A stretch of 64,000 nucleotides of DNA, taken from the IMG/VR virus record IMGVR_UViG_3300017963_000223; one strand, given 5' to 3'. Below the pieces are notes generated by a model. It did not search any database. It was not told where the DNA came from and saw only the letters and a program-made list of their open reading frames with translations. This document shows positions 39,446 to 62,188 of the stretch, piece after piece. The stretch comes from a virus. Its lineage: Duplodnaviria > Heunggongvirae > Uroviricota > Caudoviricetes. Within the stretch, counting starts at the first letter, position 1, and each line of letters opens with the position of its first letter. The translations under genes and the position numbers were made by a program.

Positions 39446-39957
39446 GCGGCGTAGCCTTAGTACAGTTTTCCGATGTCGATCTGAAGACCTTGCTGCCTAT
39501 TGGCCGGGAGGCGTTCGATCGAAACCTTGCGGCCAATGCCGATAGCCAAGGGCATGAGCCTCCGTTGCATCACATGCTGTGCGTCGCAGGGATGAAGAAC
39601 CCGCAGGCGAAGACAGCCGAGGACACCCGGCCGTATGCCAACCTTTTCCACGCTGGCTTTCTGATCGTGTGCAACGATCGTGATGCTGCTGAAATCTTGG
39701 AGGTGGCGGGTATGCCGTCCGTCATGGTAGAGACAGTTGAGCGGGGATACGTCGCCCTCTTCATCTCAGGCTCGGTCGCACAGTGGCGGGAGGCCGTGCT
39801 GCGTGGCTGCCAGCCGGAGGTAAGCCGGGGCACCCGGCAGATCTACAACGGGGTCTATACGAAGTTCAAGTCAATGGGACTAGCCGGTCTGTTCAACGTG
39901 AAGTCCAAACCGAGCCGCCGCGACCAAACTTTCCTTTTGGAATACAAACCCTCTTGA
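39442..39957 (+). CDS. hypothetical protein
   Basis: ATG 39442 overlapping upstream stop; table ORF 39427 is extension. Confidence 0.45.
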   Translation: MSGVALVQFSDVDLKTLLPIGREAFDRNLAANADSQGHEPPLHHMLCVAGMKNPQAKTAEDTRPYANLFHAGFLIVCNDRDAAEILEVAGMPSVMVETVERGYVALFISGSVAQWREAVLRGCQPEVSRGTRQIYNGVYTKFKSMGLAGLFNVKSKPSRRDQTFLLEYKPS

Positions 39958-39986
39958 CACAAGCCACTCCGTATGGTATACTTGAG
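39954..39986 (+). promoter_or_regulatory. phage promoter copy 1: TTGACA-N17-TGGTATACTTGA
   Basis: TTGACA 39954-39959, TATACT 39977-39982; ATG of SNF2 gene at 39990 (leaderless-like). Confidence 0.6.
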
Positions 39987-39989
39987 ATA

Positions 39990-41912
39990 ATGATTGAATC
40001 CATCAAGCTAGTAACGACGACTCCCAAAGGCACCAAGCTGAAGGTGCCCGCGAAGATTGAGCGCACTGAAGGTCGCATCTTCTTTGTGCAGTCGCCCTTT
40101 CACTTGAAGGACGAGATCAAGGCGATGAAGGGCTCGAAGTGGCACGGCTACATGCCGGGCGACGGGCGGAAGATGTGGTCCGTCGAAGACTGCTGCCGCA
40201 ACAACTTCCAGCTTGACTTCATGCAGGGCGGGAACCCCTACGCCAACTGGGATCAGCCACTGCGGAACTTCGGGTACTCCCGCCCACTGTTCGACCACCA
40301 GAAGCTGATGGCCGATCACTGCCTGACGTACCACTACAAGATTCTTGCGGCCGAGATGGGCGTGGGCAAAACCCTATCCGCGATCGAGGTGATAGAGAAG
40401 TCCGGGGAGCTTGACTGGTGGTGGGTGGCTCCCAAGTCGGGCCTCGCTGCCGTTGAGCGGGAGTTCGAGAAGTGGAACCTTCAAGTGACCCCACGGATGC
40501 TGACCTACGATCGGCTCCGCATTGAGATGGAACGGTGGCAGTCTGGCGACCCGGCCCCTCGCGGCGTCATCTTTGATGAGTCCTCCCGGCTCAAGACGGC
40601 CACGTCCAAGCGGACCAAGGCCGCCATGCACCTTGCCGACAGTGTTCGGGCCGAGCACGGCTGGGACGGCTACGTGATCCTCATGTCCGGAACACCCGCT
40701 CCCAAGTCGCCTGTCGATTGGTGGGCGCAGGCTGAGGTCTGCTATCCAGGGTTTGTTAAGGAAGGCAACATCAAGGCCTTTGAGTGGCGGCTCGCCATCT
40801 TCGAGAAGCACATCACATCTGCCGGAGAGTTCTGGAAGCGGAAGACCTGGAGAGATGATGAGAACAAGTGCAACAAGTGTGGCGAGTACGCGGACCATGA
40901 AAGTCACACCCTGGATGAGATGGACGAGATGTTTGGCAACGAAGCCAGTCACGAGTTCGAGCCCAGCAAGAACGAGGTGGGCTATCTCCGTCCACGACTG
41001 GAAGGCCTAGTCCTCCCGCTCGCCAAGAAGGACTGCTTGGACATCCCAGAGAAGATCTACCGTGCTGTCGAATTGTCTCCGACCTCCACGATCAAGCGAG
41101 TCGGGAAGGCCCTGGCCAAGTCCGCCATCTCCGCGATCCAAGGCCTCACATGGCTGCGGGAACTGAGCGACGGGTTCCAGTACAACCAAGTACAGAGCGA
41201 GAAAGAGCCCCTCATCACTTGCCCGGTATGCAAAGGCGCCAAGGAAGTCAAGCAGTGGTTCAATCGTCACACCAACGAGCTTGCCTACATCGACCCGAAC
41301 CTGGCGGTAGATGAAGACGACTATGAACTGCGAATGGATACATGCCCCCGTTGCGAAGGCGACGGGATGGTCCCGAACATGGTCCGCGAGACCAAGGAGA
41401 TTCGATGTCCAAAGGACCAAGCCTGTCGTGACCTGCTGGAAGAGAACGAAGACCAAGGGCGCATCGTGTTCTTCGCAGGCTTCCAGGGCTCGATCGATCG
41501 CATCGTCGCCCTCTGCCACAAGCATCATTGGAATGTTGTGAAGGTCGACGGGCGTGGCTGGAAGATCTTGCCGTGCGGTGACGAGAAGACGCCGAAGAAG
41601 GTGAAGCCGTTAAGCTACTGGGCCAACCTGGACAACGAGCGTGTCGCGTTCGTCGCCCACCCAGAGTCGGGTGGTATGGGGCTCACGTTAACGGAGGCTC
41701 GCATGGCAGTCTTCTACTCGAATGACTTCAAGCCGGAGAGCCGGATGCAGGCCGAGGATCGTATCCATAGGCCGGGCATCGACGAGAACAAAGGTGCAAC
41801 CATCGTCGACCTGTTCCATCTCGGGACGGATCGTAAGGTGCTTAACGTGTTACGCGATAACCGCAGACTGGAACAGATGACTCTTGGAGAGATGAGGGCT
41901 ATGGTAGAATGA
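39990..41912 (+). CDS. SNF2-family DNA helicase with internal zinc-ribbon insertions
   Basis: Walker A AAEMGVGKT, DExx FDESSRL, helicase-C region; CNKCG and CPVC...CPRC insertions. Confidence 0.7.
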   Translation: MIESIKLVTTTPKGTKLKVPAKIERTEGRIFFVQSPFHLKDEIKAMKGSKWHGYMPGDGRKMWSVEDCCRNNFQLDFMQGGNPYANWDQPLRNFGYSRPLFDHQKLMADHCLTYHYKILAAEMGVGKTLSAIEVIEKSGELDWWWVAPKSGLAAVEREFEKWNLQVTPRMLTYDRLRIEMERWQSGDPAPRGVIFDESSRLKTATSKRTKAAMHLADSVRAEHGWDGYVILMSGTPAPKSPVDWWAQAEVCYPGFVKEGNIKAFEWRLAIFEKHITSAGEFWKRKTWRDDENKCNKCGEYADHESHTLDEMDEMFGNEASHEFEPSKNEVGYLRPRLEGLVLPLAKKDCLDIPEKIYRAVELSPTSTIKRVGKALAKSAISAIQGLTWLRELSDGFQYNQVQSEKEPLITCPVCKGAKEVKQWFNRHTNELAYIDPNLAVDEDDYELRMDTCPRCEGDGMVPNMVRETKEIRCPKDQACRDLLEENEDQGRIVFFAGFQGSIDRIVALCHKHHWNVVKVDGRGWKILPCGDEKTPKKVKPLSYWANLDNERVAFVAHPESGGMGLTLTEARMAVFYSNDFKPESRMQAEDRIHRPGIDENKGATIVDLFHLGTDRKVLNVLRDNRRLEQMTLGEMRAMVE

Positions 41913-42076
41913 GACTCGATGACTTTCTCAATCGATTGGAATGCTTAGGCGAGACGGACTCTGAAGTCTGCATCGAAGTGAACGGCATTGTTCATGTGGT
42001 GCAAGACGTGTACGATGACTCGCAAGGCATCACTATTGTTGTCGACACTGACGCCGAAGAGAGGGCGATGCGGTGA
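41909..42076 (+). CDS. small acidic protein (55 aa)
   Basis: ATGA overlap with SNF2 stop. Confidence 0.3.
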   Translation: MRLDDFLNRLECLGETDSEVCIEVNGIVHVVQDVYDDSQGITIVVDTDAEERAMR

Positions 42077-42081
42077 GGCGA

Positions 42082-42273
42082 ATGATAGTGTTCAAAAGAC
42101 CTGATGGTGTTCGATTCGCGATCGCCGCTCCCGATATTCGACAAGTTTTTCAACGGGCTGACCTTGTCTCATGTGACATTTTCTTCCTGGATTCCAAGAA
42201 AACATTACATACAGAAGTCGTCTCCGGTACATTCGACAACATCATAACTCGAATTGAAGAGAACACCGAATGA
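42082..42273 (+). CDS. small protein (63 aa)
   Basis: ATG with GAGG 4 nt upstream; stop overlaps next start. Confidence 0.35.
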   Translation: MIVFKRPDGVRFAIAAPDIRQVFQRADLVSCDIFFLDSKKTLHTEVVSGTFDNIITRIEENTE

Positions 42274-43463
42274 GATGTACAGCTACCACCTGCCCTGCGT
42301 GCGGCTCAAACGACGTTGAACTGTTGATTGACATGGGCGAGCAGCCGATGTCCCTTGTCGCGTTGGAGAAAGACCCACACCACTCCAAGGTGCAGGAGTG
42401 TTATCCTATCGTGATGCTAATCTGTCGAAACTGCACACACGTCTTCAATAGCGAGTACAAGAGCGAGAATGTCAAGTACACGGCCGCAGGCTGCCGCATG
42501 TTCAATGCTGGGTCTGGGTGGCAAGAGCATATCAACGATGTCTATCAAATGCTGCATCCGATCACGGCAGATGAGGCTCTTGATCTGGTAATTGAGATCG
42601 GGGCAGGTGACTGCGAGTTTCTTGCGGGTATTGACACTAAGGCCGGGAAGATCGCGGTCGATCCGTGCGAGTCGGTACTGAATGCCGCGAGGTATGGCTT
42701 CACATTCTATCGCGAGCACTTCGATCCGGTTCAGCACATCCCCAGAGGAGCGGGGAATGTGCTTCTTGTTTTGCGACATTTGCTGGAGCACTTTGAGCGT
42801 CCTCGCGACATCCTTGAAAGTATCGCCCGCGCCACCAAGGCTCGGCCTAACCCGTCCATCCTCTACATCGAGGTGCCGTCGTGTGAGAATGCTCTTCGCC
42901 GATGTCGCATTGAAGACTGGACCTACGAGCATCCACAGCACTTCACTGTAGGCAGCATGCGGGCTTTGCTCCGGTCAGCCGGGCTCGATCACTTCATCGT
43001 GTTGCCGAAGTATAGTGGTGAGGTTCTCTCAGTCATCGTGAAGATTGCACCGGAGGAGCCCCACGACTCCGACCTATGTACCGATCTTGTCCTTATGGAC
43101 TATGAGCGGATGGAGCAAAACATCGCACGAGAGATGGGCTGGATGCGTCATCATTCTCTCAACACGGTCTTCTGGGGCGGGGCGGGTAAGTCGGCGATGT
43201 TCATTCGCAAGTTCCACTTGCCGGAAGATGACACGACTGTCGTTGATAGTGATGAAGAGAAGTGGGGCATGTGCGTTCCCGGCACCGGCATCAAGATTCA
43301 GCCACCGAACATCCTTTATCATGTTCGGCCAGATTACGTCATCGCCACAACGTCGTGGCGAGCGGACGACATCCGAGACGAGATCGTTCGTGATGACATC
43401 CCATGTAAAACGCTCCTCAAATTTGAGGGCGGAGAATTGAGGGAGGTTCCTCTTGGCAGGTAA
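42270..43463 (+). CDS. SAM-dependent methyltransferase of the sugar C-methyltransferase type (N-terminal zinc ribbon + class I MTase + C-terminal domain)
   Basis: N-terminal CPACGS...QPMSL...CRNC zinc-binding motif, motif I VIEIGAGDCEF; architecture as in NDP-hexose C-methyltransferases (TylCIII-like). Confidence 0.65.
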   Translation: MRCTATTCPACGSNDVELLIDMGEQPMSLVALEKDPHHSKVQECYPIVMLICRNCTHVFNSEYKSENVKYTAAGCRMFNAGSGWQEHINDVYQMLHPITADEALDLVIEIGAGDCEFLAGIDTKAGKIAVDPCESVLNAARYGFTFYREHFDPVQHIPRGAGNVLLVLRHLLEHFERPRDILESIARATKARPNPSILYIEVPSCENALRRCRIEDWTYEHPQHFTVGSMRALLRSAGLDHFIVLPKYSGEVLSVIVKIAPEEPHDSDLCTDLVLMDYERMEQNIAREMGWMRHHSLNTVFWGGAGKSAMFIRKFHLPEDDTTVVDSDEEKWGMCVPGTGIKIQPPNILYHVRPDYVIATTSWRADDIRDEIVRDDIPCKTLLKFEGGELREVPLGR

Positions 43464-45339
43464 GAAGCCCACGAAGCACCAGAAACGGATCATCAAGAAC
43501 AGGAAGCAAAAGGCCGTCCGCCAGCGCAAGGACCGCCGTGCTCAGCCCATCTGCTTGCCGCCACCCAGCCCGGAAGTCGGAATCCCTGATTTCGATCTCG
43601 CCTTGGCCTATGATTTGATCTCCCGTAGCGACCCTCGGGTGTGGAGTGAGTTCCTCAAATATCTTGGGTGGTTTGAGCAGCATCACTATCTCAAGTTCGG
43701 ACGGGAAGCGATCAAGTGCCTGAACAGATTTGCTGCCGCTTTTAGCGCGGCGATCGCCAAGGAGGACTGCCTGCCTCCGTCAGATGAAGCTATCAACTTG
43801 ATTCAGTCCAATCACTTGATACACCACCTCGTTGCATCGTCGTCGTATCAGGACTGTGACACCTTGTTGGACATGTCTCTCGGCCTGCAAAACAACTTGC
43901 CGAAGCTTCTCATGTTGCAGAACCCTCGCTGCAAGATTCAGATCGACCAGAAGAAGTTCTTTGACATGGAACCCTGGCTGGCGTCGCTCTGGTTCAACTC
44001 GTACCCGCTCGGCATCTCGTCGCCGACGGAGTTGATCCAGAAGAACATGTACCGACACTTTGAGTGCATGGACGAGCGGTGGGTGCCAACAACCCACGTC
44101 GTCTCCGGCCTCTACTTCTCCTGCACCTATCATAACCCGGCAGCGGTCCCTCGCGTCAAGCGGATCATCAACAAAGCGATCAAAGCCAGCCGAAAGAGAT
44201 GTCCGAAGTTTGTGAACAATCCGAATCCGGACTCGGTTGCCATCATCACGAACAAGTGGCATCGAAACCACGCGGTCTACAAGTCCGCCTCTCCCCTGGT
44301 AGAGCAGTTGGTTGGTAAGAAGCGGCTGACTCTCATCTGGTGCGGTGACAAGGACTCCATGCCGGACACGACTGTCACCAACTACTTCAACCAAGTTGCT
44401 CACTGTTACTTCCAGTCGAATGGCGAACTGATCATTCCGGCCGAGTTGCAGAGCAATGACTTTGGGATGATCTACTTCCCCGACATTGGTATGAGTGACG
44501 AATCTATCTGGCTGTCGAACTGTCGGATGGCGCCGATCCAGGCCGTCGGCTATGGCCACCCCGACACGACGGGCGAGGGCAACGAGATCGACTACTTCGT
44601 TGGCGGTCAGGTTGAGGCCGACTCAGCCGACTTCTACTCGGAGACAATGGTTCTGCTTCCTGGCTTGGCACAAGAGCCCGCTTGGCCGACCGCCCCTCGG
44701 CAGAACAACTACAAGGACGATGGAGTAGTGCGGGTCAATTGCGTGTGGGGCCCGGACAAGTACAATTTCTCCCTGCTGTCTATGCTCAAAAAGATCAACG
44801 AAGAGGTCGCCAAAATCGACCCTGAGTCGAAGCATGAGTTTCACTTGTTCGCCAGCCCCGGCATCAATCGATACGCAGCGCTGCCGCCATTCAGTCGTGA
44901 GATCGCACAACTCCTGCCCAACGCGGTGCTTCACTCTGAGCAGGAATACTTCGACTACATGGTCAACGCCGAGATGCACGACTTCGCCCTGAACTCGTTC
45001 CCGTTCGGCTGTTACAACGTGTTGATCGAGAGCCTGTACATGGGTCTGCCCTTCCTCTCGCTCGTTGGCGAGAGATTCTACAACCGGGCGGGCATGTACT
45101 TGAACGAGCAGGTTGGCATGGACGAGAACAACTTCCATGATCCGGTGGAGCTTATCGAGAAAGCGGCCGAGTTGATCACCAACCCTGATGAGTTGAGGCG
45201 TCAGAGAAGCCATCTGGCATCCATAGACCTGAAGGAGCGGCTCTTCACGCTGAAGGGAGATCACTTCCTCGAAGCAGTGGAATATATGCAAGAAAATCAC
45301 CCCTTCACAGAGACGAAGAAGATCGGAGTTGACGCATGA
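43453..45339 (+). CDS. glycosyltransferase, GT41 (O-GlcNAc-transferase-like) catalytic domain
   Basis: C-terminal HDFALNSFPFGCYNVLIESLYMGLPFLSLVGERFYNRAGMYLNEQVGMDE resembles OGT-family motif LDTFPYNGHTT..D.LWMGVPVVT..GE.FASRV; start codon uncertain (TTG 43453; first in-frame ATG is far downstream). Confidence 0.5.
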   Translation: MAGKKPTKHQKRIIKNRKQKAVRQRKDRRAQPICLPPPSPEVGIPDFDLALAYDLISRSDPRVWSEFLKYLGWFEQHHYLKFGREAIKCLNRFAAAFSAAIAKEDCLPPSDEAINLIQSNHLIHHLVASSSYQDCDTLLDMSLGLQNNLPKLLMLQNPRCKIQIDQKKFFDMEPWLASLWFNSYPLGISSPTELIQKNMYRHFECMDERWVPTTHVVSGLYFSCTYHNPAAVPRVKRIINKAIKASRKRCPKFVNNPNPDSVAIITNKWHRNHAVYKSASPLVEQLVGKKRLTLIWCGDKDSMPDTTVTNYFNQVAHCYFQSNGELIIPAELQSNDFGMIYFPDIGMSDESIWLSNCRMAPIQAVGYGHPDTTGEGNEIDYFVGGQVEADSADFYSETMVLLPGLAQEPAWPTAPRQNNYKDDGVVRVNCVWGPDKYNFSLLSMLKKINEEVAKIDPESKHEFHLFASPGINRYAALPPFSREIAQLLPNAVLHSEQEYFDYMVNAEMHDFALNSFPFGCYNVLIESLYMGLPFLSLVGERFYNRAGMYLNEQVGMDENNFHDPVELIEKAAELITNPDELRRQRSHLASIDLKERLFTLKGDHFLEAVEYMQENHPFTETKKIGVDA

Positions 45340-46604: not shown

Positions 46605-46628
46605 CTCGTTTCTTTAGGAGGCCTTTTC

Positions 46629-47391: not shown

Positions 47392-47424
47392 AGCGGCAGC
47401 ATCGCAAGGTGCTGCCGCTTTTTC
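47392..47424 (+). terminator. rho-independent terminator agcggcagca...tgctgccgct + TTTTCC
   Basis: 10-bp stem, T-tract. Confidence 0.6.
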
Positions 47425-47436
47425 CATATTTTCTAC

Positions 47437-47468
47437 TTGACTTTCTGGCTCCATGTGGTATACTTGAT
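47437..47468 (+). promoter_or_regulatory. phage promoter copy 2 (TTGACT-N16-TGGTATACTTGA)
   Basis: -10 TATACT 47459-47464; RBS AGGAG then ATG 47482. Confidence 0.6.
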
Positions 47469-49775: not shown

Positions 49776-49803
49776 CTTTTGGAGGTTTGTATGATAGACT
49801 TGA
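49772..49803 (+). promoter_or_regulatory. phage promoter copy 3 variant (TTGACT-N17-TAGACTTGA)
   Basis: Spacer ...gtatga matches copy at 54607 (gtatgatatacttga vs gtatgatagacttga). Confidence 0.45.
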
Positions 49804-49917
49804 TAGGGCCCTGGATAGGGCTAGGCACGATCGTCACCTTGACGCTCTTCATCCTTGCGGTGGGCTTCCGGCTCATCGACATCGTCACTCGTGTCGGCGG
49901 TGAAGAGGATCAGCCGG

Positions 49918-52512
49918 ATGGCTATAACGGCGAGGAATAGCGTGAGATTCAGAAGAGATGCCTATTATATTGATAGTGAGACCTGTGGGTTCCACGGGCT
50001 CGCTACCCTCATACAATGGGCGTATGAGGATGGCGATGTCCACCTGCACAACCTGTGGGACGTGCCGGTCCAAGAGACCCTCGACCTGATCGAGCGGTTC
50101 TGCGGGTCGACGTGCGTCTTCTTCAACGCGACTTACGACTGGTTCCATCTGTGCAAGATCTATACAATGTGGAGCCTGCTGCCGCCGGACGCCATACCCG
50201 CCAACCTCCCGACCTCCACACTGGTGGAAGCCGAGAAGGAGGCACGGGACGGCCCCTGCCTCAAGCCCAAGGATGTGATGTGCCTGATGATGCACAGCCG
50301 CAAGGGCGAGTTCCAAACTCTCATGTCGCGGCATGACGTGAAGGTCACGAAGGTGCCCACTCCATTGGCCGAGCCGCTCCGTAATGTGTTGGAAGGCCTG
50401 ATCGAGTTCGACGGCATCTTGTTCGCTGGCCGAGCCAACCCCAACGCTCCGAAGTGGGGCGTCTACGATCGGATCAAGAAGGGCAAGGAAGACACGGTTG
50501 ACCCGAATTTCAAAGACGTGACGCTCAAGTTCAAGCCTGCTCGCGGGTTGAAATATCTCGCCCAGCACTGCCTTGGCCTGGACCCTGAGTTCCACTCGTT
50601 CAAGGATGTATATCCGGAACGGGAGGGGCAGAAGTTGTTTGAGTTGGGCTACGCCCCCTTCGCCCTGGCGGTGTCGGACGCAGACCAGGGCTGGAAGGTC
50701 TACGACAAAAACAACAAGCTGAAAGGCCGAGCATGGCCTGCACTTATTCACTATGACATTGACCATTGGAGAGAGAATGACGAAGCGCGACGCTATGCAA
50801 GAGACGACGTTGTTTACACCCGGCTTCTGGATGAATACTTTGGATTCCCTGAATCCGGCGATACGGACTCGGTGCTCTCCTGCATGGTGGCTGCCGTCCG
50901 GTGGCATGGTTTCGTCGTCGACACTGAGGCGATCACCCAGCTACACGCAAAATCCAAAAGGGTGCTTGAGGCATCCCCAGTAAACATCAACAAACCGTCT
51001 CAGGTCAAAAGATACATCCGCGAGGTGATGGCCGAGGAAGAGGCGACCCTCATCGACAAGAGCACGAAGAAAGCCAACCTGGAGAAGATCCGGGCGGACT
51101 ACGTTGTGATGCCCGACTCGGAAGACTTCGACCCGGAACTCGGCGGCGAGTTGTGTGTGCGTTGCCTGGGCGATGGTTGTGTCCGCTGCGAAGGCCGAGG
51201 CTATCTGCCCGAGGGTCCTACCCTGGCGTCCAAGCGGGCGGACGAGATTCTCAAGTGCAAGATCGCCGCGAAGGAAGTCGAACTCTACACCAAACTGCTC
51301 AAAGCGGGACGATTTCACGCGGCCTTCAAGGTGATCGGAACACTTTCCAGCAGAATGGCCGGAGGTGAAGGCCTCAACGCTCAGGGCATCAAAGGCTCGG
51401 CCGAGGTTCGTGGGGCGTTCCCTCTCAAGTGGGACGGGATGATCCTGTGCGGCGGCGACTTCGACGGGTTCGAGGTTACGATCGCTGACGCTGTGTTCGG
51501 CGACGAGAAGCTACGCACCAACTTGCTGGCGGGTGTCTCCATCCACACGATGATGGCGGAGAAGATCTACCCGAACAAGACCCGCGAGCAGATAAAGGCC
51601 AGCAAAGGCTTTGCCGACGGTGGCGACATCGACATGTACACTCGCGGCAAACAGGCGGTGTTCGCCACACTGTACGGCGGGGATGCCAACACGATCAACA
51701 AGAAGCTGTCTATTCCGAAGAAGATCGCCGAGGCGGCCTTCGACGGCTTCCAGGAGGAATACCCCGGCATCAAGGAGACCCGCGAGCAGATCGCAGAAAG
51801 GTTCCAAGCATTGGAGCAGCACGGTGAGGTGGGGACCGGCCACATCAGCTACAAGAAACCCGACGATTATATTGAGACCTTCCTCGGCTTCCGACGATAT
51901 TTCACGCTGGAGAACAAAATCGCGAAGGCCTTGTACGATCTGGCGCACAACACCCCTGTCGCATGGAGAAAGCTGGACTGGAAAGTCGTCCGACGCGACA
52001 GGGAGCAGTCTCCGGCGGGCGCCATCTCCTCGGCCCTGTACGGAGCGGCCTTCCAAATCCAGGCCAGCACCATCCGAGCCGCCAACAACCACTTGATCCA
52101 GTCGCCGGGCGCCCAGATCACCAAGCAGTTGCAGCGAAACATCTGGGACTTACAGCCCTGGGGTGTGAGCGAGTGGAGGGTGGCCCCGATCAACGTCCAT
52201 GACGAAGTGCTGAGCGTGACCGTGCCGGACGCCGTCGAAGAGGTCACAGCGGTCACGGTGGAGACCGTCGAGTCGTTTCGTGACAGGGTGCCGCTGATTG
52301 GAATGGATTGGGTAAAAAGTATGGAAAACTGGGCGGGCAAGAAGGGCGGAGGCGAGAACCTGGAAGTCAAGATCAGCCCGCACGGCATCTCCGGCTGGAA
52401 CGATGAAGACACCGAGTACGTCGAGCCAGTCAGCGCCCAAGAGTTAGACGACCTGGACGAAGAGGACGACCCCTGCCCCGTGAACAATGAATACCTGGAG
52501 AGCCTGATATGA
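49918..52512 (+). CDS. family A DNA polymerase with N-terminal 3'-5' exonuclease domain
   Basis: Exo I YYIDSETCGF; motif A DFDGFEVTIADAVFGDEKL; motif B RGKQAVFATLYGG; motif C VHDEV. Start 49918 (ATG) or 49941 (GTG) uncertain. Confidence 0.8.
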   Translation: MAITARNSVRFRRDAYYIDSETCGFHGLATLIQWAYEDGDVHLHNLWDVPVQETLDLIERFCGSTCVFFNATYDWFHLCKIYTMWSLLPPDAIPANLPTSTLVEAEKEARDGPCLKPKDVMCLMMHSRKGEFQTLMSRHDVKVTKVPTPLAEPLRNVLEGLIEFDGILFAGRANPNAPKWGVYDRIKKGKEDTVDPNFKDVTLKFKPARGLKYLAQHCLGLDPEFHSFKDVYPEREGQKLFELGYAPFALAVSDADQGWKVYDKNNKLKGRAWPALIHYDIDHWRENDEARRYARDDVVYTRLLDEYFGFPESGDTDSVLSCMVAAVRWHGFVVDTEAITQLHAKSKRVLEASPVNINKPSQVKRYIREVMAEEEATLIDKSTKKANLEKIRADYVVMPDSEDFDPELGGELCVRCLGDGCVRCEGRGYLPEGPTLASKRADEILKCKIAAKEVELYTKLLKAGRFHAAFKVIGTLSSRMAGGEGLNAQGIKGSAEVRGAFPLKWDGMILCGGDFDGFEVTIADAVFGDEKLRTNLLAGVSIHTMMAEKIYPNKTREQIKASKGFADGGDIDMYTRGKQAVFATLYGGDANTINKKLSIPKKIAEAAFDGFQEEYPGIKETREQIAERFQALEQHGEVGTGHISYKKPDDYIETFLGFRRYFTLENKIAKALYDLAHNTPVAWRKLDWKVVRRDREQSPAGAISSALYGAAFQIQASTIRAANNHLIQSPGAQITKQLQRNIWDLQPWGVSEWRVAPINVHDEVLSVTVPDAVEEVTAVTVETVESFRDRVPLIGMDWVKSMENWAGKKGGGENLEVKISPHGISGWNDEDTEYVEPVSAQELDDLDEEDDPCPVNNEYLESLI

Positions 52513-53297: not shown

Positions 53298-53329
53298 TTG
53301 ACATTCCCAAGTTTTGTGGTATACTTGAA
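53298..53329 (+). promoter_or_regulatory. phage promoter copy 4 (TTGACA-N16-TGGTATACTTGA)
   Basis: TATACT 53320-53325; RBS AAGGAG; ATG 53358. Confidence 0.6.
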
Positions 53330-53357
53330 GTATACAGCAAACAACAAGGAGACAAGC

Positions 53358-54606: not shown

Positions 54607-54639
54607 TTGACAAATGGCATTTCGTATGATATACTTGAG
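54607..54639 (+). promoter_or_regulatory. phage promoter copy 5 (TTGACA-N17-TGATATACTTGA) upstream of tRNA-Asn
   Basis: TATACT 54630-54635; tRNA begins ~87 nt downstream. Confidence 0.55.
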
Positions 54640-54721
54640 TGTATCCTTTGAGAAAGCAAACCGACACACTCAAGCCCTGAGGACAGAACGATGCCGTCTT
54701 GTTAGACTAAAGCTCTAACCC

Positions 54722-54794
54722 TGTACAGTAGCTCAATGGGTAGAGCACCTGACTGTTAATCAGGTGGTTGCTGGTTCAAGTCCAGCCTGTACAG
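54722..54794 (+). tRNA. tRNA-Asn (anticodon GTT)
   Basis: Acceptor TGTACAG/CTGTACA, D-stem GCTC/GAGC, anticodon stem CCTGA/TCAGG loop CTGTTAA, T-stem GCTGG/CCAGC loop TTCAAGT. Confidence 0.8.
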
Positions 54795-54813
54795 CTAACC
54801 CTGGAGACCTGAG

Positions 54814-54999
54814 ATGACACGACAAGAAGCGATCGACAAAGGCTTTGTGTTCTATTGCTTGGAGTGTACGGCCGTGTACAAGAAAGTTCCGACGCGGGAT
54901 TACGCAGACGGCCACAGCCACCGGCAATTGGAGTCATGCCGTCGGTGCGGGTGCGACCTGTTTGCAAGACTTGACAACAACGAGAGAGCCAAAGCATGA
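54814..54999 (+). CDS. small zinc-ribbon protein
   Basis: CLEC...CRRCGC. Confidence 0.4.
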   Translation: MTRQEAIDKGFVFYCLECTAVYKKVPTRDYADGHSHRQLESCRRCGCDLFARLDNNERAKA

Positions 55000-55577
55000 A
55001 CAGCCCATACATCGCCATCGACATCGAGACGACCGGCACCGACCCAGAGCGACACCAAGTCCTGGAGATCGCGGCAGTCTACAACCAGCAGTGCGTTGAT
55101 GTGATTGACTGCCCAACCTTTCATACCATAGTTAATCCGGGCGAGATTGTTGGCACCTCTTACGCCTTGAACATGAACGCTCGAATCCTTGAGCATCTCG
55201 CAAGTGGCCTGGGCTGGGCGCCCGCCACCGCAATGGTTCAGTTGATGAACTGGGTGGGGGACCTCCGCAATCGATTCAACATCGATAAGTTTCACCTGAT
55301 TGGGAAGAACGTCGCTTCATTTGATCTTCAGTTTCTGAAACGTGTCCATGGCTGGAATAAGAACTACTTCAGCCACCGGCACTTGGATGTTGGCTCTCTC
55401 TATTCGACGCCCGCCGGTATAGCTAGTCAAGACGAACTGGCTGAGCACTTGATAGCGGAGGCCGGGATCGAAGGCTGCCCGCATGAGGCCCTGTTTGATG
55501 CTCGCGTGTCGCTTGAACTGGCTCGCCGGGCTTGGCGGGACATGCTTGAGCCGCCCTACGGAGCCCAAGGACTTTGA
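54996..55577 (+). CDS. second DnaQ-like DEDDh 3'-5' exonuclease
   Basis: IAIDIETTG (Exo I), ...HEALFDA (Exo III). Confidence 0.65.
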   Translation: MNSPYIAIDIETTGTDPERHQVLEIAAVYNQQCVDVIDCPTFHTIVNPGEIVGTSYALNMNARILEHLASGLGWAPATAMVQLMNWVGDLRNRFNIDKFHLIGKNVASFDLQFLKRVHGWNKNYFSHRHLDVGSLYSTPAGIASQDELAEHLIAEAGIEGCPHEALFDARVSLELARRAWRDMLEPPYGAQGL

Positions 55578-55597
55578 TCAAAATCCGAAGAAATCAC

Positions 55598-55630: not shown

Positions 55631-55644
55631 ATAAGGAGGCCACA

Positions 55645-55932: not shown

Positions 55933-56155
55933 GTCAGGGACACCTGCCGACCTTTGGGACTTCATCTCCAATGAGACAGAGATCGATCGCCATGTTTGCA
56001 AGGAGGTCGTCTTCCAAATAATCTTCGGAGCCAAAGTCATCGAAACCGCAATCGAATACGGCCTGATGCTTGCCGAAATGGTGTGCATCCGGGCCGCCTT
56101 CGACCAGTACACCCATGAACACAGGAAAAGCGATGCCGTACATCAAGAAAACTGA
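55895..56155 (+). CDS. hypothetical protein overlapping previous gene by 38 nt
   Basis: ATG 55895 in alternate frame; coding-like composition. Confidence 0.35.
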   Translation: MEQRAEKLRSLCESGTPADLWDFISNETEIDRHVCKEVVFQIIFGAKVIETAIEYGLMLAEMVCIRAAFDQYTHEHRKSDAVHQEN

Positions 56156-56771: not shown

Positions 56772-56773
56772 CT

Positions 56774-57190
56774 GTGGAACCGAAGAAGTTCAGGAGCAAG
56801 ACCGGCCCGGAAGCCATCATCCAGCGGGAGTTCATCAGCTACCTGAAAGACAGGGGGTGGCATGTTGAAAGAATGATCGGGAACCAACTACAGAAGGGCA
56901 TCCCCGACATTTACATCATGCACCCGTCGCACGGCTGCCGCTGGATCGACTTGAAGAACCCGATTGACTATGAATTCACCCGAGCACAGAGAATCAAATG
57001 GCCGATCTGGGAAGCCCACGGCATCGGCATCTGGATCATAACGGGCTGGTCAGATGAGGACTACGCGAAACTTTGGAAGCCGCCGAACTGGCGAGAGTAT
57101 TGGAAGCCGAAATACGATGAAGAGGCTGAGGAACTAGCACAATCATTGCAGGAACTGTTTGATGAATTTGAAGAAGACAATCTTGCTTGA
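56774..57190 (+). CDS. VRR-NUC (PD-(D/E)xK) nuclease domain protein
   Basis: GIPDIYIMHP...RWIDLK motif; GTG start. Confidence 0.5.
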   Translation: MEPKKFRSKTGPEAIIQREFISYLKDRGWHVERMIGNQLQKGIPDIYIMHPSHGCRWIDLKNPIDYEFTRAQRIKWPIWEAHGIGIWIITGWSDEDYAKLWKPPNWREYWKPKYDEEAEELAQSLQELFDEFEEDNLA

Positions 57191-57794
57191 CCTGGACGGC
57201 GTGCTGATCGACATGGTCGTGCCTCTTATGCAGTGGTGGGGCGTCCGCATCACAGGTGAAGCACAGTACCCGCGAGACTTTGGGTGGGATGTGAAAGGCG
57301 CCATCTCCTACGCCCTGGAAATACAGGGAAGGAGAAACAAGTCGAAGACCGTCCATGATATGTCGAGAAAGGAATTTTGGCACACTATGCCTTACTCCTT
57401 CTGGCGAGATCTTCTGCCCTATCCGACAGTCGATGCTTTTGTTAGGTTCCTTGAGCAGCAGGGGCTGGACATATACTTTATGACAGCCCACGCTAACCCC
57501 GACTGCGCCTCCGCCAAGCTGAATTGGATCAATGACTACTTCCCGAGGTATTGGGATCGAGTTCTCGTCGGCCACCCGAAGCATCTCGCTGCCAACTCGC
57601 AATCGATCCTGATTGATGACAGTGACAAAAACTGCGACGACTTTATAGCGGCCGGAGGCTTGGCCATTCTATGTCCGAGACCTTGGAACAGGAGGTGGGG
57701 CGAGTCGAGAGGTTTCAATTCGTGCCCTGAACCACGTCCCCTGGAACATGATACTGTTATCAAAAACCTCTACGAAATCGCGGAGCGGCTATGA
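57159..57794 (+). CDS. HAD-superfamily 5'(3')-deoxyribonucleotidase-like hydrolase
   Basis: HAD motif I LLDLDGVL; later IDDS. Confidence 0.55.
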   Translation: MMNLKKTILLDLDGVLIDMVVPLMQWWGVRITGEAQYPRDFGWDVKGAISYALEIQGRRNKSKTVHDMSRKEFWHTMPYSFWRDLLPYPTVDAFVRFLEQQGLDIYFMTAHANPDCASAKLNWINDYFPRYWDRVLVGHPKHLAANSQSILIDDSDKNCDDFIAAGGLAILCPRPWNRRWGESRGFNSCPEPRPLEHDTVIKNLYEIAERL

Positions 57795-58294
57795 GATTAC
57801 AAGGAGCAAACCAGAACGATTGTGTCGCCGCCTCGCTCGCTATGTTGCTTGGCGTCAGCATGGAGCACATCAAGGGTCGGTTGTTCGTCGCACTCACGAG
57901 ACCGTTCCCTAATCCGTGGGCAGAGTTTCCAAAAGTCCCGGACATGAACGTCATTTGTGACTGGCTATGGGAAAAGCACAAAGTAGCATTGACTCCGTTC
58001 GAGTACGATCCGCAATGCTCCCCTCACAAAGATTGTCCGCCCGTCTCAGTGTATCCTCAAACTTGTGGCTCCCTGCATGTAGATGCTGACTGGGCATTCA
58101 ACAAGCAGACGGCGTATGGCCCAGGGTTGTTTGAGGGCTGCATCGTCGGCAAAGAGATCGGCCACATGTGTGCTTGGGATGGGCAGACCATCTTCGATCC
58201 GCGAGGCTACTGCTATTCACGCAACGTCGCGCAAACGAAATTCAACTATCAGATCACACGCTTCTGGTTAGCAACCAAAGGAGAAGCGTTATGA
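57791..58294 (+). CDS. peptidase C39-like domain protein
   Basis: QNDCVAASLAMLLG resembles C39 catalytic Cys motif (Q..DCG.A.LAM...G); His in GHMCAWDG. Confidence 0.4.
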   Translation: MRLQGANQNDCVAASLAMLLGVSMEHIKGRLFVALTRPFPNPWAEFPKVPDMNVICDWLWEKHKVALTPFEYDPQCSPHKDCPPVSVYPQTCGSLHVDADWAFNKQTAYGPGLFEGCIVGKEIGHMCAWDGQTIFDPRGYCYSRNVAQTKFNYQITRFWLATKGEAL

Positions 58295-58992
58295 ACTACA
58301 TCCACTTGAAGCACTACCACACGAATGTGATGAACTTTGAGCATCCTATGCTTGATGATGTGGTCGAGTCTTATGATAGTGATAAGCTTGACGCCCTTGC
58401 CTGGAAAGTTGTCGATGGGGCCGATCCTGAAGAGTTGGTGTTGGCTCTTCGGTCTTGCCTCAAGTTGCTGGTGGGTCGGCTCCTCGGCAACTGGCCAGAG
58501 AGCGAGCCTTATGTGGATGATATGGTCAGTGAGGGCTTCGCTGAGATCGTTCGGCTATGTAACGACATCCCGGAAGACCTGCTGGCGGAGAAAAGCATCT
58601 TCAAGATCGCTGACTCTCGCGCACAGGCCGGTATTGAAAGAATGTTGAATAGTTTGAGAGCCCTTGCAGCCGTCAGTCCTAGAACTCAGATGGCACGATT
58701 CAACCGAGATGAGGACCCTTTCTATGTCCAAAGTGTGAGCGACTCAACACTGCGGACTCCAGAAGATGAGACGGCTTGGCACCCGATTGAAGACGGGGAT
58801 GAGCAGATCAGAGATGTGTTGGAGTCTATCAGAATGCTTCCACCCTCTGATGAAATTGACAAGAAGATACTCAATCCTCTCTATTGGAACATGTCGGATT
58901 CAGAATTAGCAAACGAAGTGGGAGTCAGTAGGCAAGCTATCCGAAAACGGAAGCGTCGCCTTTACAATCAATATCTCAAAATTACGGAGTAA
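58291..58992 (+). CDS. phage-encoded ECF-like sigma factor
   Basis: C-terminal region-4 HTH MSDSELANEVGVSRQAIRKRKRRL; region-2-like segment upstream; ATGA coupling. Confidence 0.55.
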   Translation: MNYIHLKHYHTNVMNFEHPMLDDVVESYDSDKLDALAWKVVDGADPEELVLALRSCLKLLVGRLLGNWPESEPYVDDMVSEGFAEIVRLCNDIPEDLLAEKSIFKIADSRAQAGIERMLNSLRALAAVSPRTQMARFNRDEDPFYVQSVSDSTLRTPEDETAWHPIEDGDEQIRDVLESIRMLPPSDEIDKKILNPLYWNMSDSELANEVGVSRQAIRKRKRRLYNQYLKITE

Positions 58993-58995
58993 GCC

Positions 58996-59466
58996 ATGAA
59001 GAAGTCGTTTTGCGCGTTTTGTATCCTTGCGTTGCTCGCCATGAACATCACGATGGCTGTAGGCGTCGCCAATACTGAGTGGTGTGCCGCACGATGGGCC
59101 GAGCGAGTGAGCAGCTATGAGGAAGTTCGGCAATTGAATCGGGAGCTTTATGTCTCGAATCAGTATTCGTCTCATCTCGTTGAAGGCGTGAGGATGCTGG
59201 CGGTGGAAAACGGCCTCTTATGTGAGCGAGACATTGCGGCAGCGAAGGTCGTCATGCAGTACGAGGAAGAAAATCGACGACTGAAAACGTCGCTCGGCGA
59301 CGCCTGCAAAAGACTCGAAGAGCAGATCGATCAGATCAACACGCTGATGGATGAAGTCGAGAATCTCAGGTGGCAGATCAAAGTCTTGGAAGACGCGATC
59401 GCCAGATCCAATGAAGAAGAGCCTCCCGCAACTGATGAAACTGTTTCACCAACGAGGACACTATGA
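58996..59466 (+). CDS. N-terminally anchored coiled-coil protein
   Basis: Hydrophobic N-terminus then heptad-rich region; topology recalls i-spanins or anti-sigma factors. Confidence 0.4.
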   Translation: MKKSFCAFCILALLAMNITMAVGVANTEWCAARWAERVSSYEEVRQLNRELYVSNQYSSHLVEGVRMLAVENGLLCERDIAAAKVVMQYEEENRRLKTSLGDACKRLEEQIDQINTLMDEVENLRWQIKVLEDAIARSNEEEPPATDETVSPTRTL

Positions 59467-59900
59467 AAGACGAAGCCCCGAAAGTGCCGTTCCGATTATC
59501 AGAGGTCCCGTCCCTCGCCCCGATTGTCACCCAGGCGATCATCGACGCGGGAATCTCAATTGTACAAGGCCGAGTGACTGACACCAACGGTCAGATATTT
59601 GCCAACTTCTCAATCTCGTCCAGCGAGGTGGCAGAGATGACGGCCTCCGACCTTTTCCTTGACTTCCTGAAACCCGCAACAGAAGAGGTGGCCAAGAAGA
59701 TCATCAAGTACGCAGGGGATTGCAACCTGTGTACATCGGCCGCCCCGCTGCCGCCAAAGGGAAGCCCTGTTGTCGGGTTCCGCTGTATCGGCGGTTTGAT
59801 TCCGGTGAACATCTATGTTGCACGTAGACAATCGCCGGATCGTCATCAGTTCATCATCGAAACCCGTGTCACTCGTGTGGAGAAAGAAGATGGCGCGTAG
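59463..59900 (+). CDS. hypothetical protein
   Basis: ATGA coupling. Confidence 0.4.
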   Translation: MKDEAPKVPFRLSEVPSLAPIVTQAIIDAGISIVQGRVTDTNGQIFANFSISSSEVAEMTASDLFLDFLKPATEEVAKKIIKYAGDCNLCTSAAPLPPKGSPVVGFRCIGGLIPVNIYVARRQSPDRHQFIIETRVTRVEKEDGA

Positions 59901-60984
59901 AGAATTCTTACAGCTTGCGAAGAAGTTCACGCTGGGCAAGGATGATCCCAGCGGCATGTTCATCTCGGAGAAGCTCGACGGGACTCGGGTGTTCTGGGAC
60001 GGCGGCATCTCGCGTGGCATGTCGACCATCGAAGTGCCTTGGGCCAACGTCGTCAACCCAAAGACCGGGGAGTTGAAGCCCAAGATCAAAGAAAGAGCAA
60101 CCGGCCTCTGGTCGCGATACGGCAACCCGATCATCGCCCCAGACTGGTGGTTGAACCGCCTGCCGCAGATCTTCCTTGACGGTGAGTTGTTTGCGGGTAG
60201 GGGCAACTTCCAGACGCTCCGGTCGATCGTGGCAAAGGATGTCGCCGACGAAGCGGCTTGGCGGGATGTTCAATTTGCAGCGTTCGGCTGCCCTTCCGCT
60301 GAGCAGGTATTCGCTCCTGGCGAAATCAAGAACTCAAACATGGTGCTCGACATCCACCCGATGGTTATCACACAGTTCCTCCGTAGCCGAATCGAAAGGG
60401 GCTTTGCAGAAGAGTTATCATACGCCTATACACACACCTTCACGTTCGAGCAAGAACTGAAACACCTTCAAAGTGCCCTTCCCCAGGACGACTTGGTCTA
60501 TCTACATCGCCACGTCCAGTTGCCGGGCGATCGCTCAGCAGCCGAATCGCACATGGGCCGGTTCATGGATGAGGTGTTGAACGAAGGCGGTGAGGGCGTC
60601 ATGCTCCGTGACCCGCAAGCGATCTGGACGCCCAAGCGTGTGAAGAGCCTGCTGAAGCTGAAGCCGTTCAGTGACGATCAGGGGACGTTGATCGGCTTTG
60701 TCTCCGGGCGGCAAACTGACAAAGGCAGTAAGCTGCGTGGACTGATTGGCGCCATGGTTCTTGACTATAAGGGCAAGCGACTGGAGTTGAGCGGGTTCAC
60801 CGATGAGGAGCGACGGTTTGCCACTGAGGGGATGACGAAGTTTGCCTACAACAACCCCGGTGAAGAAATGTCTTTCCACTTCCAGGGGAAACACTTCAAA
60901 GTCGGCGACACGATCGAATTCCGCTACCGAGAGCTATCTGATGATGGAATCCCGAAGGAGGCCCGCTACCTGCGAAAGACCTGA
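59890..60984 (+). CDS. ATP-dependent DNA ligase
   Basis: Motif I SEKLDGTR; motif IV EGVMLRDP; motif V LLKLKP; size typical of T7-like ligases. Confidence 0.75.
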   Translation: MARREFLQLAKKFTLGKDDPSGMFISEKLDGTRVFWDGGISRGMSTIEVPWANVVNPKTGELKPKIKERATGLWSRYGNPIIAPDWWLNRLPQIFLDGELFAGRGNFQTLRSIVAKDVADEAAWRDVQFAAFGCPSAEQVFAPGEIKNSNMVLDIHPMVITQFLRSRIERGFAEELSYAYTHTFTFEQELKHLQSALPQDDLVYLHRHVQLPGDRSAAESHMGRFMDEVLNEGGEGVMLRDPQAIWTPKRVKSLLKLKPFSDDQGTLIGFVSGRQTDKGSKLRGLIGAMVLDYKGKRLELSGFTDEERRFATEGMTKFAYNNPGEEMSFHFQGKHFKVGDTIEFRYRELSDDGIPKEARYLRKT

Positions 60985-61158
60985 GCCGGTAGCGTATGAT
61001 GTGAGTATCAAGGTGGAGAACGGAAGCTTCACCGTCGAGATCAGGGAGGACGCGGAAGTCAAAAGGTTTCCCGCTCGCTCGTTGAGACATGCTCAAGCAA
61101 TCAGGAATTTCCTTGGGCCGGATGTTTACGAAGGATCGCTGACAACAATGAAGAGGTC

Positions 61159-61389
61159 GTGATGTCGGACAAGAAAGTCAAGGATAAGCACATCACTCGG
61201 AAAGGTCATGCAGGCTTAATTTACCTAGCGACCGTGGAGTATTATCAAGATCGACCGTTCCGTGATGAACACTTCCCTGTAGTGAGAGAGTTCTCAGACT
61301 TGAAAGCGGCTCAGAAGTTTCTGGAGAAGTATCCGCGAGACGTTTGGGACGGGCTAGCACACAAAGGCAGAAAACAACCCATACTGTAG
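61159..61389 (+). CDS. hypothetical protein
   Basis: ORF. Confidence 0.4.
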   Translation: MMSDKKVKDKHITRKGHAGLIYLATVEYYQDRPFRDEHFPVVREFSDLKAAQKFLEKYPRDVWDGLAHKGRKQPIL

Positions 61390-61396
61390 GAAGACA

Positions 61397-61813
61397 ATGC
61401 TTGAAGTGAAGTGCTATGGCGGCCCAGCGCACGGGCGCACAATGAAGTTGACCGACCATGCGGTCCCTCGAATTGAGATGATACCTAAGCCTCATCTCCT
61501 GCCCCGTCTCAGTTCGATGCCCTTTGACATGATACCGCCTGCCCCGATCGCCTACGAGACCTGCACATACTATCTGCAAACGCACCGACAGTATGGGGTC
61601 ACTGAATGGCACTCCGAAGTCTATCGACAGTTAATGGTCTTGGTGCTAGATGGCGCCGATCTGACGATCCGCGAGGAGCACGACCTGGAACGCGACCTGG
61701 AACGAGTCCCATGGATTTGGAAGCACAAGCCATCAATCCTGCGCTGGTTTGAGGCATGGTGGGAGAAAGCCCTCCACGATGAGGGTGTGAAGAAAGCAAA
61801 AGTCTACTACTAA
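61397..61813 (+). CDS. hypothetical protein
   Basis: ORF. Confidence 0.4.
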   Translation: MLEVKCYGGPAHGRTMKLTDHAVPRIEMIPKPHLLPRLSSMPFDMIPPAPIAYETCTYYLQTHRQYGVTEWHSEVYRQLMVLVLDGADLTIREEHDLERDLERVPWIWKHKPSILRWFEAWWEKALHDEGVKKAKVYY

Positions 61814-61828
61814 CCCGAGGAGTGTCCG

Positions 61829-62137
61829 ATGCGAGAACAGTTGCTTGCCATGTTGAAGCCTTACATTTCTGACGTTGAACAATGCAACTCAGTTGTTGAG
61901 AAGCTAGTCGATCTCATCGAAGAACACCGTGAGTTGCAGGTTGAGATCGCCCGAGACGAAGGTTATGACTCAGGTCGGGCTGACGGCCTAGCTGAAGGCC
62001 ATGACGAAGGCTATGACGAAGGCTATGACGAAGGCTCTGACGAAGGCAAGGAGGAAGGCTACGACGATGGCTACACCAGAGGGTATAACCATGGATACGG
62101 TGAAGGCTACGACGACGGCATCGACGAAAGAATGTGA
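61829..62137 (+). CDS. highly acidic protein with (D/E)EGYD tandem repeats
   Basis: EGHDEGYDEGYDEGSDEGKEEGYDDGY...; encoded by 12-bp tandem repeats. Confidence 0.5.
   Translation: MREQLLAMLKPYISDVEQCNSVVEKLVDLIEEHRELQVEIARDEGYDSGRADGLAEGHDEGYDEGYDEGSDEGKEEGYDDGYTRGYNHGYGEGYDDGIDERM
61978..62095 (+). repeat. 12-bp tandem repeat (gacgaaggctat-like) array inside acidic-protein gene
   Basis: gaaggccatgacgaaggctatgacgaaggctatgacgaaggctctgacgaaggc... Confidence 0.6.
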
Positions 62138-62150
62138 ATTTCTTTGTGAT

Positions 62151-62188
62151 TTGACTTGACAAACACCATCCCGTAGGGTATACTTTAG
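62151..62188 (+). promoter_or_regulatory. phage promoter copy 7 (tandem TTGACT/TTGACA -35, N17, GGTATACTTTA)
   Basis: TATACT 62179-62184; RBS GTAGGAGA; ATG 62201. Confidence 0.6.

Follow-up and report, generated by a model that had tools for sequence, protein, structure and literature searches.

Seven near-consensus promoter elements in the replication half of an uncultured tailed phage: probable use by host RNA polymerase

Introduction

In a stretch of 64,000 nucleotides from a tailed phage (Caudoviricetes; IMG/VR record IMGVR_UViG_3300017963_000223), which was analysed at its full length and is called the window in the following, a short element of the form cTTGAC(A/T)-N16/17-TA(T/G)ACT-T(G/T)(A/T) is found exactly seven times, always on the + strand, between positions 39,954 and 62,187. 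The phage comes from an uncultured lineage without a close cultured relative. A sequence-only reading of the same DNA had taken the copies for a phage promoter, which would define the early and middle transcription units and leave the late genes to another factor, such as a phage sigma factor encoded at 58291. Which polymerase would read these elements, what would be transcribed from them and whether they are a property of this lineage in particular are the questions raised by the locus.

The answer favoured here, with good confidence and on the strength of the DNA itself, is that host RNA polymerase with its primary (sigma-70/sigma-A-type) sigma factor uses all seven elements as strong promoters. 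Each copy combines a near-perfect cTTGACa -35 element, a spacer of 16-17 bp, a TRTGn motif, a TATACT -10 element and a T-G/T-A discriminator, with an A-rich, UP-like stretch upstream in some copies, and transcription would start about 7 nt past the -10, often with T at -1 and A at +1. The copies would split the replication/nucleotide-metabolism array (39.9-64 kb) into seven overlapping units, one of them insulated by a terminator, while most copies would act as internal boosters on top of read-through. Transcripts would open at the start codon itself (the leaderless helicase), at the Shine-Dalgarno sequence (leaders of 10-12 nt) or upstream of a tRNA, and pre-late expression of the replication and nucleotide-metabolism genes, of the tRNA and of a sigma-like factor would be driven in this way. 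The architecture of the copies, their non-random placement, their restriction to one module and their evolutionary conservation, which are described in the following, were read directly from the DNA.

A discrete family of seven elements

The exact pattern TTGACA-N15-18-TATACT has five matches on the + strand of the window, where 0.01 would be expected on the basis of dinucleotide-preserving shuffles. When one mismatch was tolerated in each hexamer, this relaxed scan also returned the copies at 47437 (TTGACT) and 49772 (TTGACT/TAGACT), along with weak sites at 29429 (+) and 51008 (-). When both strands of the window were scanned with a two-block position weight matrix (PWM) built from the seven sites, only these seven stood out, with scores of 37.6-41.8 bits; the next distinct site scored 10.2 bits, i.e. 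within the range of the maxima found with the same PWM in 20 random Markov-1 sequences (4.6-13.5 bits). Since the PWM was trained on the same seven sites, it is the empty gap, and not the absolute scores, that is informative. The family is sharply delimited at exactly seven copies, without a tail of intermediate scores, and none of them lies on the minus strand or within positions 1-39,953 of the window. Thus far the sequence-only reading was accurate, all of the copies that it had listed being recovered by the pattern, relaxed and PWM scans.

The -35 hexamer is TTGACA in five copies and TTGACT in two; the -10 hexamer is TATACT in all but one (TAGACT), with A(-11) and T(-7) kept throughout; and the spacer measures 17 bp in five copies and 16 bp in two. 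All sequence features of sigma-70-type promoters are present, the TG of the extended -10 element being found in six of the seven (the copy at 62156 has GGG instead). The copies, numbered P1 to P7, are listed in table 1 with the other features of the window; relatives are designated by an L and a number.

Table 1. Promoter copies and other features of the window (positions in nucleotides unless kb is given; ORF, open reading frame)
Feature	Position	Strand	Description
P1	39954-39985	+	TTGACA-N17-TATACT-TGA; TGA stop of upstream ORF (39427-39957) inside the -35
P2	47437-47467	+	TTGACT-N16-TATACT-TGA; AGGAGA from about +1, ATG 47482, leader 11 nt
P3	49772-49803	+	TTGACT-N17-TAGACT-TGA; weakest match; TGA stop of upstream ORF in the -35
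P4	53298-53328	+	TTGACA-N16-TATACT-TGA; 26-nt leader to ATG 53358
P5	54607-54638	+	TTGACA-N17-TATACT-TGA; 80 nt to tRNA-Asn
P6	55598-55629	+	TTGACA-N17-TATACT-TGT; AAGGAGG from about +2, ATG 55645, leader 12 nt
P7	62156-62187	+	TTGACA-N17-TATACT-TTA, without TG; AGGAGA from about +1, ATG 62201 (Stf0-like sulfotransferase), leader 10 nt
Intrinsic terminator	47392-47419	+	12-bp stem, then TTTTTCC; dG -27 kcal/mol; ends the P1 unit
Predicted leaderless sites	window 39983-39992; L001 7714, 8221; L006 8467, 14670; L008 2127, 5715, 13382		window site is that of the SNF2 helicase
Sigma-like gene	58291-58992	+	233 aa; inside the P6 unit
Structural module	1-32.3 kb	+	large terminase 4906, portal 6595, scaffold 8935, major capsid 10243, tape measure 21099
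Minus-strand block	32.4-36.8 kb (32432-36800)	-	exonuclease subunit, pyrophosphohydrolase-like protein, primase
Replication/nucleotide-metabolism half	37-64 kb	+	ParB-like, SNF2-type helicase, C-methyltransferase, exonuclease, family-A DNA polymerase, ATP-dependent ligase, Stf0-like sulfotransferase
tRNA-Pro-TGG	465-539	+	
tRNA-Thr-TGT	11704-11777	+	
tRNA-Asn-GTT	54722-54795	+	

Placement of the copies and predicted transcripts

The copies are not scattered at random with respect to gene starts: all seven are found at gene boundaries and are co-oriented with the genes. Between 39.9 and 64 kb the + strand has eight intergenic gaps of 35 nt or more, six of which contain a copy, P1 occupying a gap of 32 nt, and in those loci of relatives for which genes were called about 20 of 23 sites are at gene boundaries.

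All leader lengths presuppose that transcription starts 7 nt past the -10. The short leaders of the sequence-only reading then apply to some of the copies only, the predicted lengths being about 1, 11, 12 and 10 nt at 39954, 47437, 55598 and 62156, respectively, and 26, 80 and about 135 nt at 53298, 54607 and 49772, the last up to the GTG start (49942) of the family-A DNA polymerase. In the case of P1, the ATG of the SNF2-type helicase (39990), which is backed by homology from residue 1 in L001, lies 8 nt past the -10, with a predicted leader of about 1 nt, and the helicase mRNA is predicted to be leaderless. The same geometry (no Shine-Dalgarno sequence, and an ATG which follows the -10 by 5-8 nt and opens an ORF of 50 codons or more) is found at 9 of 34 sites of the family, about one case being expected by chance, and some of these ATGs are independently called gene starts (e.g. 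L006 8502 and L008 2161). Start codons and Shine-Dalgarno sequences are phase-locked to the predicted +1, which argues that transcription does start there and is the best indirect evidence obtained here; by implication, the host would translate leaderless mRNAs. The predicted starts fall on a Y(-1)R(+1) step in four of the seven copies, and in six if a start one base earlier is allowed.

Among the three phage tRNA genes only that of tRNA-Asn has a promoter copy of its own (P5), as the sequence-only reading had seen; a small zinc-ribbon ORF (54814-54999) and the gene at 54996-55577 follow in the same unit. P6 heads a unit of about 6.5 kb, which includes the sigma-like gene and the DNA ligase. 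Two of the copies overlap further features. An inverted repeat at P5 (TTGAGTGT...ACACTCAA, 54635-54673, +), kept in L004 and L005, covers the predicted start site and positions +25 to +32; it could serve as a protein-binding site or, should transcription begin further upstream, form a 5' hairpin. At P3, the spacer contains the GGAGG-N5-ATG (ATG 49791) of a 49-aa ORF (49791-49940, +) with a predicted transmembrane helix (MIDLIGPWIGLGTIVTLTLFILAVGF...), which, because of this position of its Shine-Dalgarno sequence and start codon, could be translated only from read-through transcripts.

The statement that the copies usually follow an upstream terminator does not stand, an intrinsic terminator being found directly upstream of one copy out of seven (P2). 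At the other six, the best upstream hairpins are within the genomic background and none is terminator-like, the exception in stability being a hairpin of -20.9 kcal/mol before 55598, which lies inside coding sequence and has no T-run. Therefore, most copies would add to read-through rather than act as insulated starts. The motif would define transcription units in the + strand array at 39.9-64 kb and not in the minus-strand block (32432-36800) or among the + genes at 37046-39957, none of which has a copy. In the divergent region between this block and the genes from 37046, conserved in L217 and L218, no convincing -35/-10 pair was found; retrieval of relatives on the basis of the ParB-like protein gave one distant match only.

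Promoter grammar across the phage family

For a view of the grammar of the element, 35 distinct sites from the window and from six non-structural loci of relatives, picked on the two hexamers only, were aligned. The spacer is variable in sequence and fixed at 16-17 bp in length; an A-rich stretch lies just 5' of the -35 and a C directly precedes TTGAC in 20 of the 35 sites. Positions that had played no part in the selection are conserved on both sides of the -10, namely T(-17) in 29, R(-16) in 31, T(-15) in 23, G(-14) in 29 and G(-13) in 24 of the 35 sites and, past the hexamer, T(-6) in 32, G/T(-5) in 33 and A(-4) in 29, the information content falling to about 0.1-0.4 bit immediately beyond the TGA. 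An unbiased count of TTGAC-N17/18-TANNNT on the + strand of the same DNA returned TATACT 24 times, TATAAT three times and TAGACT twice, and nothing recurrent on the minus strand. Since TATACT exceeds TATAAT by 24 to 3, C at -8 is a real preference of the whole family. To judge from these positions, the motif follows the rules of a sigma-70/sigma-A promoter in which a TRTGn extended -10 element is combined with a discriminator.

Conservation, restriction to one module and occurrence in unrelated phages

The copies upstream of the 53358 gene, of the 55645 gene, of tRNA-Asn and of the sulfotransferase recur before the orthologues in L004 and L005, and those of the sulfotransferase and of the tRNA also in L006 and L008; the sigma-like protein of these relatives is 76% (L004/L005) and about 50% (L006/L008) identical to that of the window. 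In particular, orthologous copies are found for P4 in L004, L005 and L006, and for P7 in L004, L005, L006/L007 and L008, the promoter-tRNA-Asn pair is kept in L004, L005 and L008 (a small ORF intervenes in L006), and the TAGACT variant precedes the polymerase cluster in L008 as it does at P3. Taken over all orthologous genes, the copies span relatives at 35-76% protein identity, and their spacers have diverged. The methyltransferase, exonuclease, sigma-like and ligase genes have no copy in the window and none in the relatives. The counterpart of P6 is missing before the orthologue in L002, L006 and L008, so that copies are both gained and lost.

The absence of copies from the structural module, another claim of the sequence-only reading, is true of the window and nearly so of about 1 Mb of structural modules of relatives. 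Indeed, on both strands of 80 capsid-centred loci (998 kb), with at most one mismatch, five matches were found, as opposed to 24 sites on the + strand of the relatives' non-structural loci (119 kb) with the same tolerance, i.e. a density about 40-fold higher in non-structural DNA.

The element is not, however, a promoter specific for this phage. The pattern TTGACA-N13/14-TGGTATACTTGA, with 18 specified bases, occurs in at least 120 IMG/VR contigs, where the chance expectation, a rough figure that rests on an assumed size of the collection, is of the order of 10. Among the matches listed, 118 of 120, with a median GC content of 38%, share no protein with the window, as established by tblastn with a set of 33 window proteins that includes the sigma-like protein; two are related loci. 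The same bases in at least 118 unrelated contigs speak for a generic near-consensus promoter rather than a lineage-specific one: the element is an ordinary kind of phage promoter and not a new one.

Host sigma factor or phage sigma factor

The most serious alternative assigns the motif to the phage's own sigma-like protein (table 1), the copies being middle promoters of its regulon, their resemblance to the sigma-70 consensus a matter of chance, and C(-8) and TGA the marks of its specificity. That the protein is a phage sigma factor, as had been proposed, is plausible from the predicted fold and is not supported by sequence families, sigma models of Pfam giving no match and only HTH_AsnC-type/HTH_24 (helix-turn-helix) models matching at the C-terminus. 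Searches of the PDB with the sequence and with a 31-sequence profile returned no sigma factor. The AF2 model (pLDDT 83) is all-helical, with two domains joined by a disordered linker, and its Foldseek matches are nearly all sigma factors (sigma-32, SigE, AlgU, SigK, CnrH, sigma-S, sigma-A), with a best E value of 9.6e-4 and template-modelling (TM) scores of 0.2-0.4, which are low because of the orientation of the domains, as expected for a flexible protein with two of them. An hhalign comparison with E. coli RpoE (with an RpoE sequence that was entered by hand) is collinear over sigma-2 and sigma-4, with a pairwise E value of 0.0036 and a probability of 9%. The protein is rather likely to be a divergent sigma-70-family factor.

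Such a divergent sigma-fold protein, conserved throughout the family and located in an unchanged gene neighbourhood in all of the relatives examined, is what makes the alternative worth weighing, together with the 24:3 bias for TATACT and the conserved T-G-A, which exceed what the canonical consensus requires. The sigma-like gene itself, though, sits behind the same motif (P6), with no other promoter seen upstream of it in the window, so that host polymerase must read P6 first. Moreover, the two hexamers agree with the universal consensus of primary sigma factors in 11 of their 12 positions, to which TRTGn is added, and the identical 18 bases recur in the at least 118 unrelated contigs, which are mostly of low GC content. 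Characterized phage sigma factors, such as gp28 and gp33/34 of SPO1 and gp55 of T4, recognize sequences unlike the host consensus, and this likewise speaks against the phage factor. Because of the position of the sigma-like gene behind the motif, the near-perfect consensus and its frequency in unrelated phages, the assignment to the phage sigma factor is considered improbable.

Certain observations nevertheless weigh against the reading as host promoters. The phage does encode a sigma-like protein (58291-58992); the E. coli consensus does not account for the preference for C at -8 (TATACT 24 versus TATAAT 3); of the family sites, three (L006 10281, L006 12927 and L008 16341) lie inside genes; and P3, which overlaps the Shine-Dalgarno sequence and ATG of the small ORF, may be a weak promoter or in part a coincidence.

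The start sites, the identity of polymerase and sigma factor and the pre-late timing are deduced from the features described so far, and the same applies to the distinction of early from middle expression and to the use of a phage sigma factor for late genes. A cascade in which the host sigma factor acts first and the phage sigma factor later fits the position of the gene behind P6. For the genes without the motif, the 58291 protein is a candidate factor and, to the extent that the model can be relied on, a switch to late genes through it is plausible. No late-promoter motif could be defined from the gaps of the structural module that were inspected. The sequence (C/T)TTACTCG occurs on the + strand at 10216-10223 and 25142-25149, i.e. 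at a distance of 23-25 nt before the start codons of two genes, that of the capsid and that at 25167; at the latter it directly follows a strong hairpin (25095-25135), and at the former it comes after a structured element (see below). A processing site or a part of a late promoter is conceivable, two copies being too few to tell.

Recombination boundaries and operators

A second alternative, still less probable, regards the copies mainly as recombination boundaries, by which accessory genes would be shuffled as in the promoter(early) stem-loop (PeSL) cassettes documented in T4-like phages (PMC2839356, PMC4122927), promoter activity being secondary. Gene content does vary between conserved copies, in that genes for radical-SAM, RNase T and HNH proteins are present in L005 at places where the window and L004 are different, and promoter-proximal DNA such as 'aaatccgaagaaa(t/c)cacTTGACAaacc' is near-identical in the window, L004 and L005, where the flanking proteins are about 59% identical. 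As in T4-like phages (PMC2839356, PMC4122927), an early-promoter sequence recurs at the borders of variable gene blocks; in contrast to them, the stem-loop/terminator half is missing at six of the seven copies, on which ground the model was rejected. The shared identity of about 30 bp, with divergent spacers, is also short for homologous recombination, and such boundaries would in any case be compatible with promoter function and merely add to it.

An operator common to all units, i.e. a block around the -10 (GGTATACTTGA, with the palindrome GTATAC) by which a phage or host regulator would switch them on or off jointly, so that protein binding and not sigma contacts would account for the conservation outside the hexamers, is hardly credible and was rejected, since the local inverted repeats that suggest it, together with helix-turn-helix proteins encoded nearby, namely GTATACTT-G-AAGTATAC (53319-53335), which encloses the -10 of P4, and the conserved repeat at P5, have unlike symmetry centres, the information content collapses right after the TGA, and the flanking positions that are conserved coincide with contacts established for sigma factors (region 3.0 at TRTGn, region 1.2 at the discriminator).

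Relation to known promoters and to a possible host

Promoters read by the host sigma factor in the early regions of phages are a textbook mechanism. The early promoters of the Bacillus phage SPO1 (sigma-A) and of T4 and T5 (sigma-70) are the host-sigma-dependent early promoters of large lytic phages, and the copies that we take to be read by host polymerase resemble them in being multiple, near-consensus, more uniform and stronger than typical host promoters, clustered, co-oriented and absent from late genes; a sigma-like factor of the phage's own is shared with the SPO1 cascade (gp28, gp33/34). They differ in that the phage is unrelated (terminase identity at most 26%), that the -10 is TATACT and not TATAAT, and that many units would lack a leader or begin with the Shine-Dalgarno sequence at +1. 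In lambda PL and T7 A1 the -10 is GATACT. The end of the hexamer (ACT) and a -35 of TTGACA/TTGACT at 17 bp are thus common to both, the first base of the -10 being T here and G there, and hosts and phages are unrelated. One TTGACC-N17-TATACT reported among the heterogeneous host-type promoters of phage Felix O1 is uninformative for the present motif.

In the sigma-70 grammar described by Kuo et al. 2025 (PMC12641261), a TG/TRTG extended element directly 5' of the -10, a start 7 bp past the -10 and a Y(-1)R(+1) step are found, and the same TRTGn, the 17-bp modal spacer and a predicted start 7 bp downstream apply to the copies described here. TRTG is common in Firmicutes in that survey of 49 species, which has no Planctomycetota (PMC12641261), whereas here it is found in a phage of 54% GC whose nearest genome-embedded relatives are in Planctomycetota metagenome-assembled genomes (MAGs). 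The preference for TATACT, TRTGn at such a GC content and the frequent leaderless or Shine-Dalgarno-at-+1 layout make the set mildly unusual.

Relatives of the capsid protein at 33-54% identity are found inside Thermoguttaceae/Planctomycetaceae MAG contigs of 137 kb to 4.2 Mb (L090, L091, L093, L094 and L095), with a further one in an Anaerolinea MAG contig and one in a contig labelled 'uncultured archaeon'. These embedded sequences hint that the wider phage family, with temperate relatives, infects Planctomycetota. A motif scan of the Planctomycetota prophage-like loci, which cover structural genes only, found no copy, and no usable description of a primary-sigma promoter consensus for the phylum was found in the literature searched. 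It is a tentative and on balance doubtful proposal that the phage family infects Planctomycetota and that its promoters report the primary-sigma grammar of that phylum. Were it true, that grammar would be cTTGACa-N17, Firmicutes-style TRTGn, TATACT with C at -8 and TGA as the discriminator, leaderless starts being frequent, the phage would run a two-stage programme (host sigma factor, then phage sigma factor), and the seven copies with about 30 orthologues would supply strong, portable promoters to a phylum for which genetic tools are scarce; if the link to the host holds, this would be a first view of the core-promoter preferences of Planctomycetota. A promoter set with leaderless or minimal leaders could serve as portable strong promoters, and a well-supported transcription-unit map is obtained for the replication half of an uncultured lineage, in which the sigma-like factor, DNA polymerase, helicase, ligase, tRNA-Asn and sulfotransferase are among the predicted pre-late genes.

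The phage lineage and other features of the window

Megablast of the window against 50,697 phage records gave the tRNA-Asn as the only match, the terminase and the polymerase are at most 26% and 27% identical, respectively, to those of any cultured phage, and tblastn with the sigma-like protein gave no match in the phage records. The lineage, which lacks a cultured relative, is yet common in metagenomes: 99 matches to the capsid gene were found in IMG/VR, where the polymerase search gave three related contigs. The sigma-like protein has 40 metagenomic homologues, and since the contigs that carry them reach 105 kb, the genome is probably of about 100 kb, the window being only part of it.

Accessory enzymes of an unusual kind are encoded at 42270-45339 (+), namely a C-methyltransferase-like protein (Methyltransf_13/14/23) and a 628-aa protein with a weak HMW1C-like match at its N-terminus, and the Stf0-type sulfotransferase (62201-63037, +) is conserved across the family; the methyltransferase-like, HMW1C-like and sulfotransferase proteins may modify DNA or glycans. 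Strong hairpins are found after the capsid gene (about 11665-11700) and at 19880-19920, 25095-25135 and 38700-38740.

Between the minus-strand primase gene and the + ParB-like gene, the start of which is probably at about 37046 (MNDTQKEI) and not at 36932, there is a perfect palindrome with 10-bp arms (ATTTGTGCAA-G-TTGCACAAAT, 36894-36914). At the corresponding position in L217 and L218 there is an inverted repeat with another sequence, the surrounding DNA being conserved, which makes the palindrome a candidate operator co-varying with its regulator, or a hairpin.

A structured element of about 100 nt lies between the scaffold and major capsid genes (10098-10232, +) and is conserved in 22 aligned relatives, the capsid proteins of which are 68-98% identical. 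It consists of a long interrupted hairpin with the near-invariant loop GTCCGCGCC, a small hairpin (CCGG-gaaga-CCGG) and a third hairpin with a variable stem and an invariant CCAGGG loop, which could pair with an invariant CCTGGG downstream in a possible pseudoknot; ACTTACTCA and the Shine-Dalgarno sequence come next. A search against Rfam gave no match at the gathering score or at E<=1. In the alignment, 85.6% of cells are paired (15-52% in slid controls), and of 21 pairs there are 15 in which both partners have changed. The covariation is clear, and the element looks like an undescribed cis-regulatory or stabilizing RNA leader of the capsid mRNA, and it is possibly more novel than the promoters.

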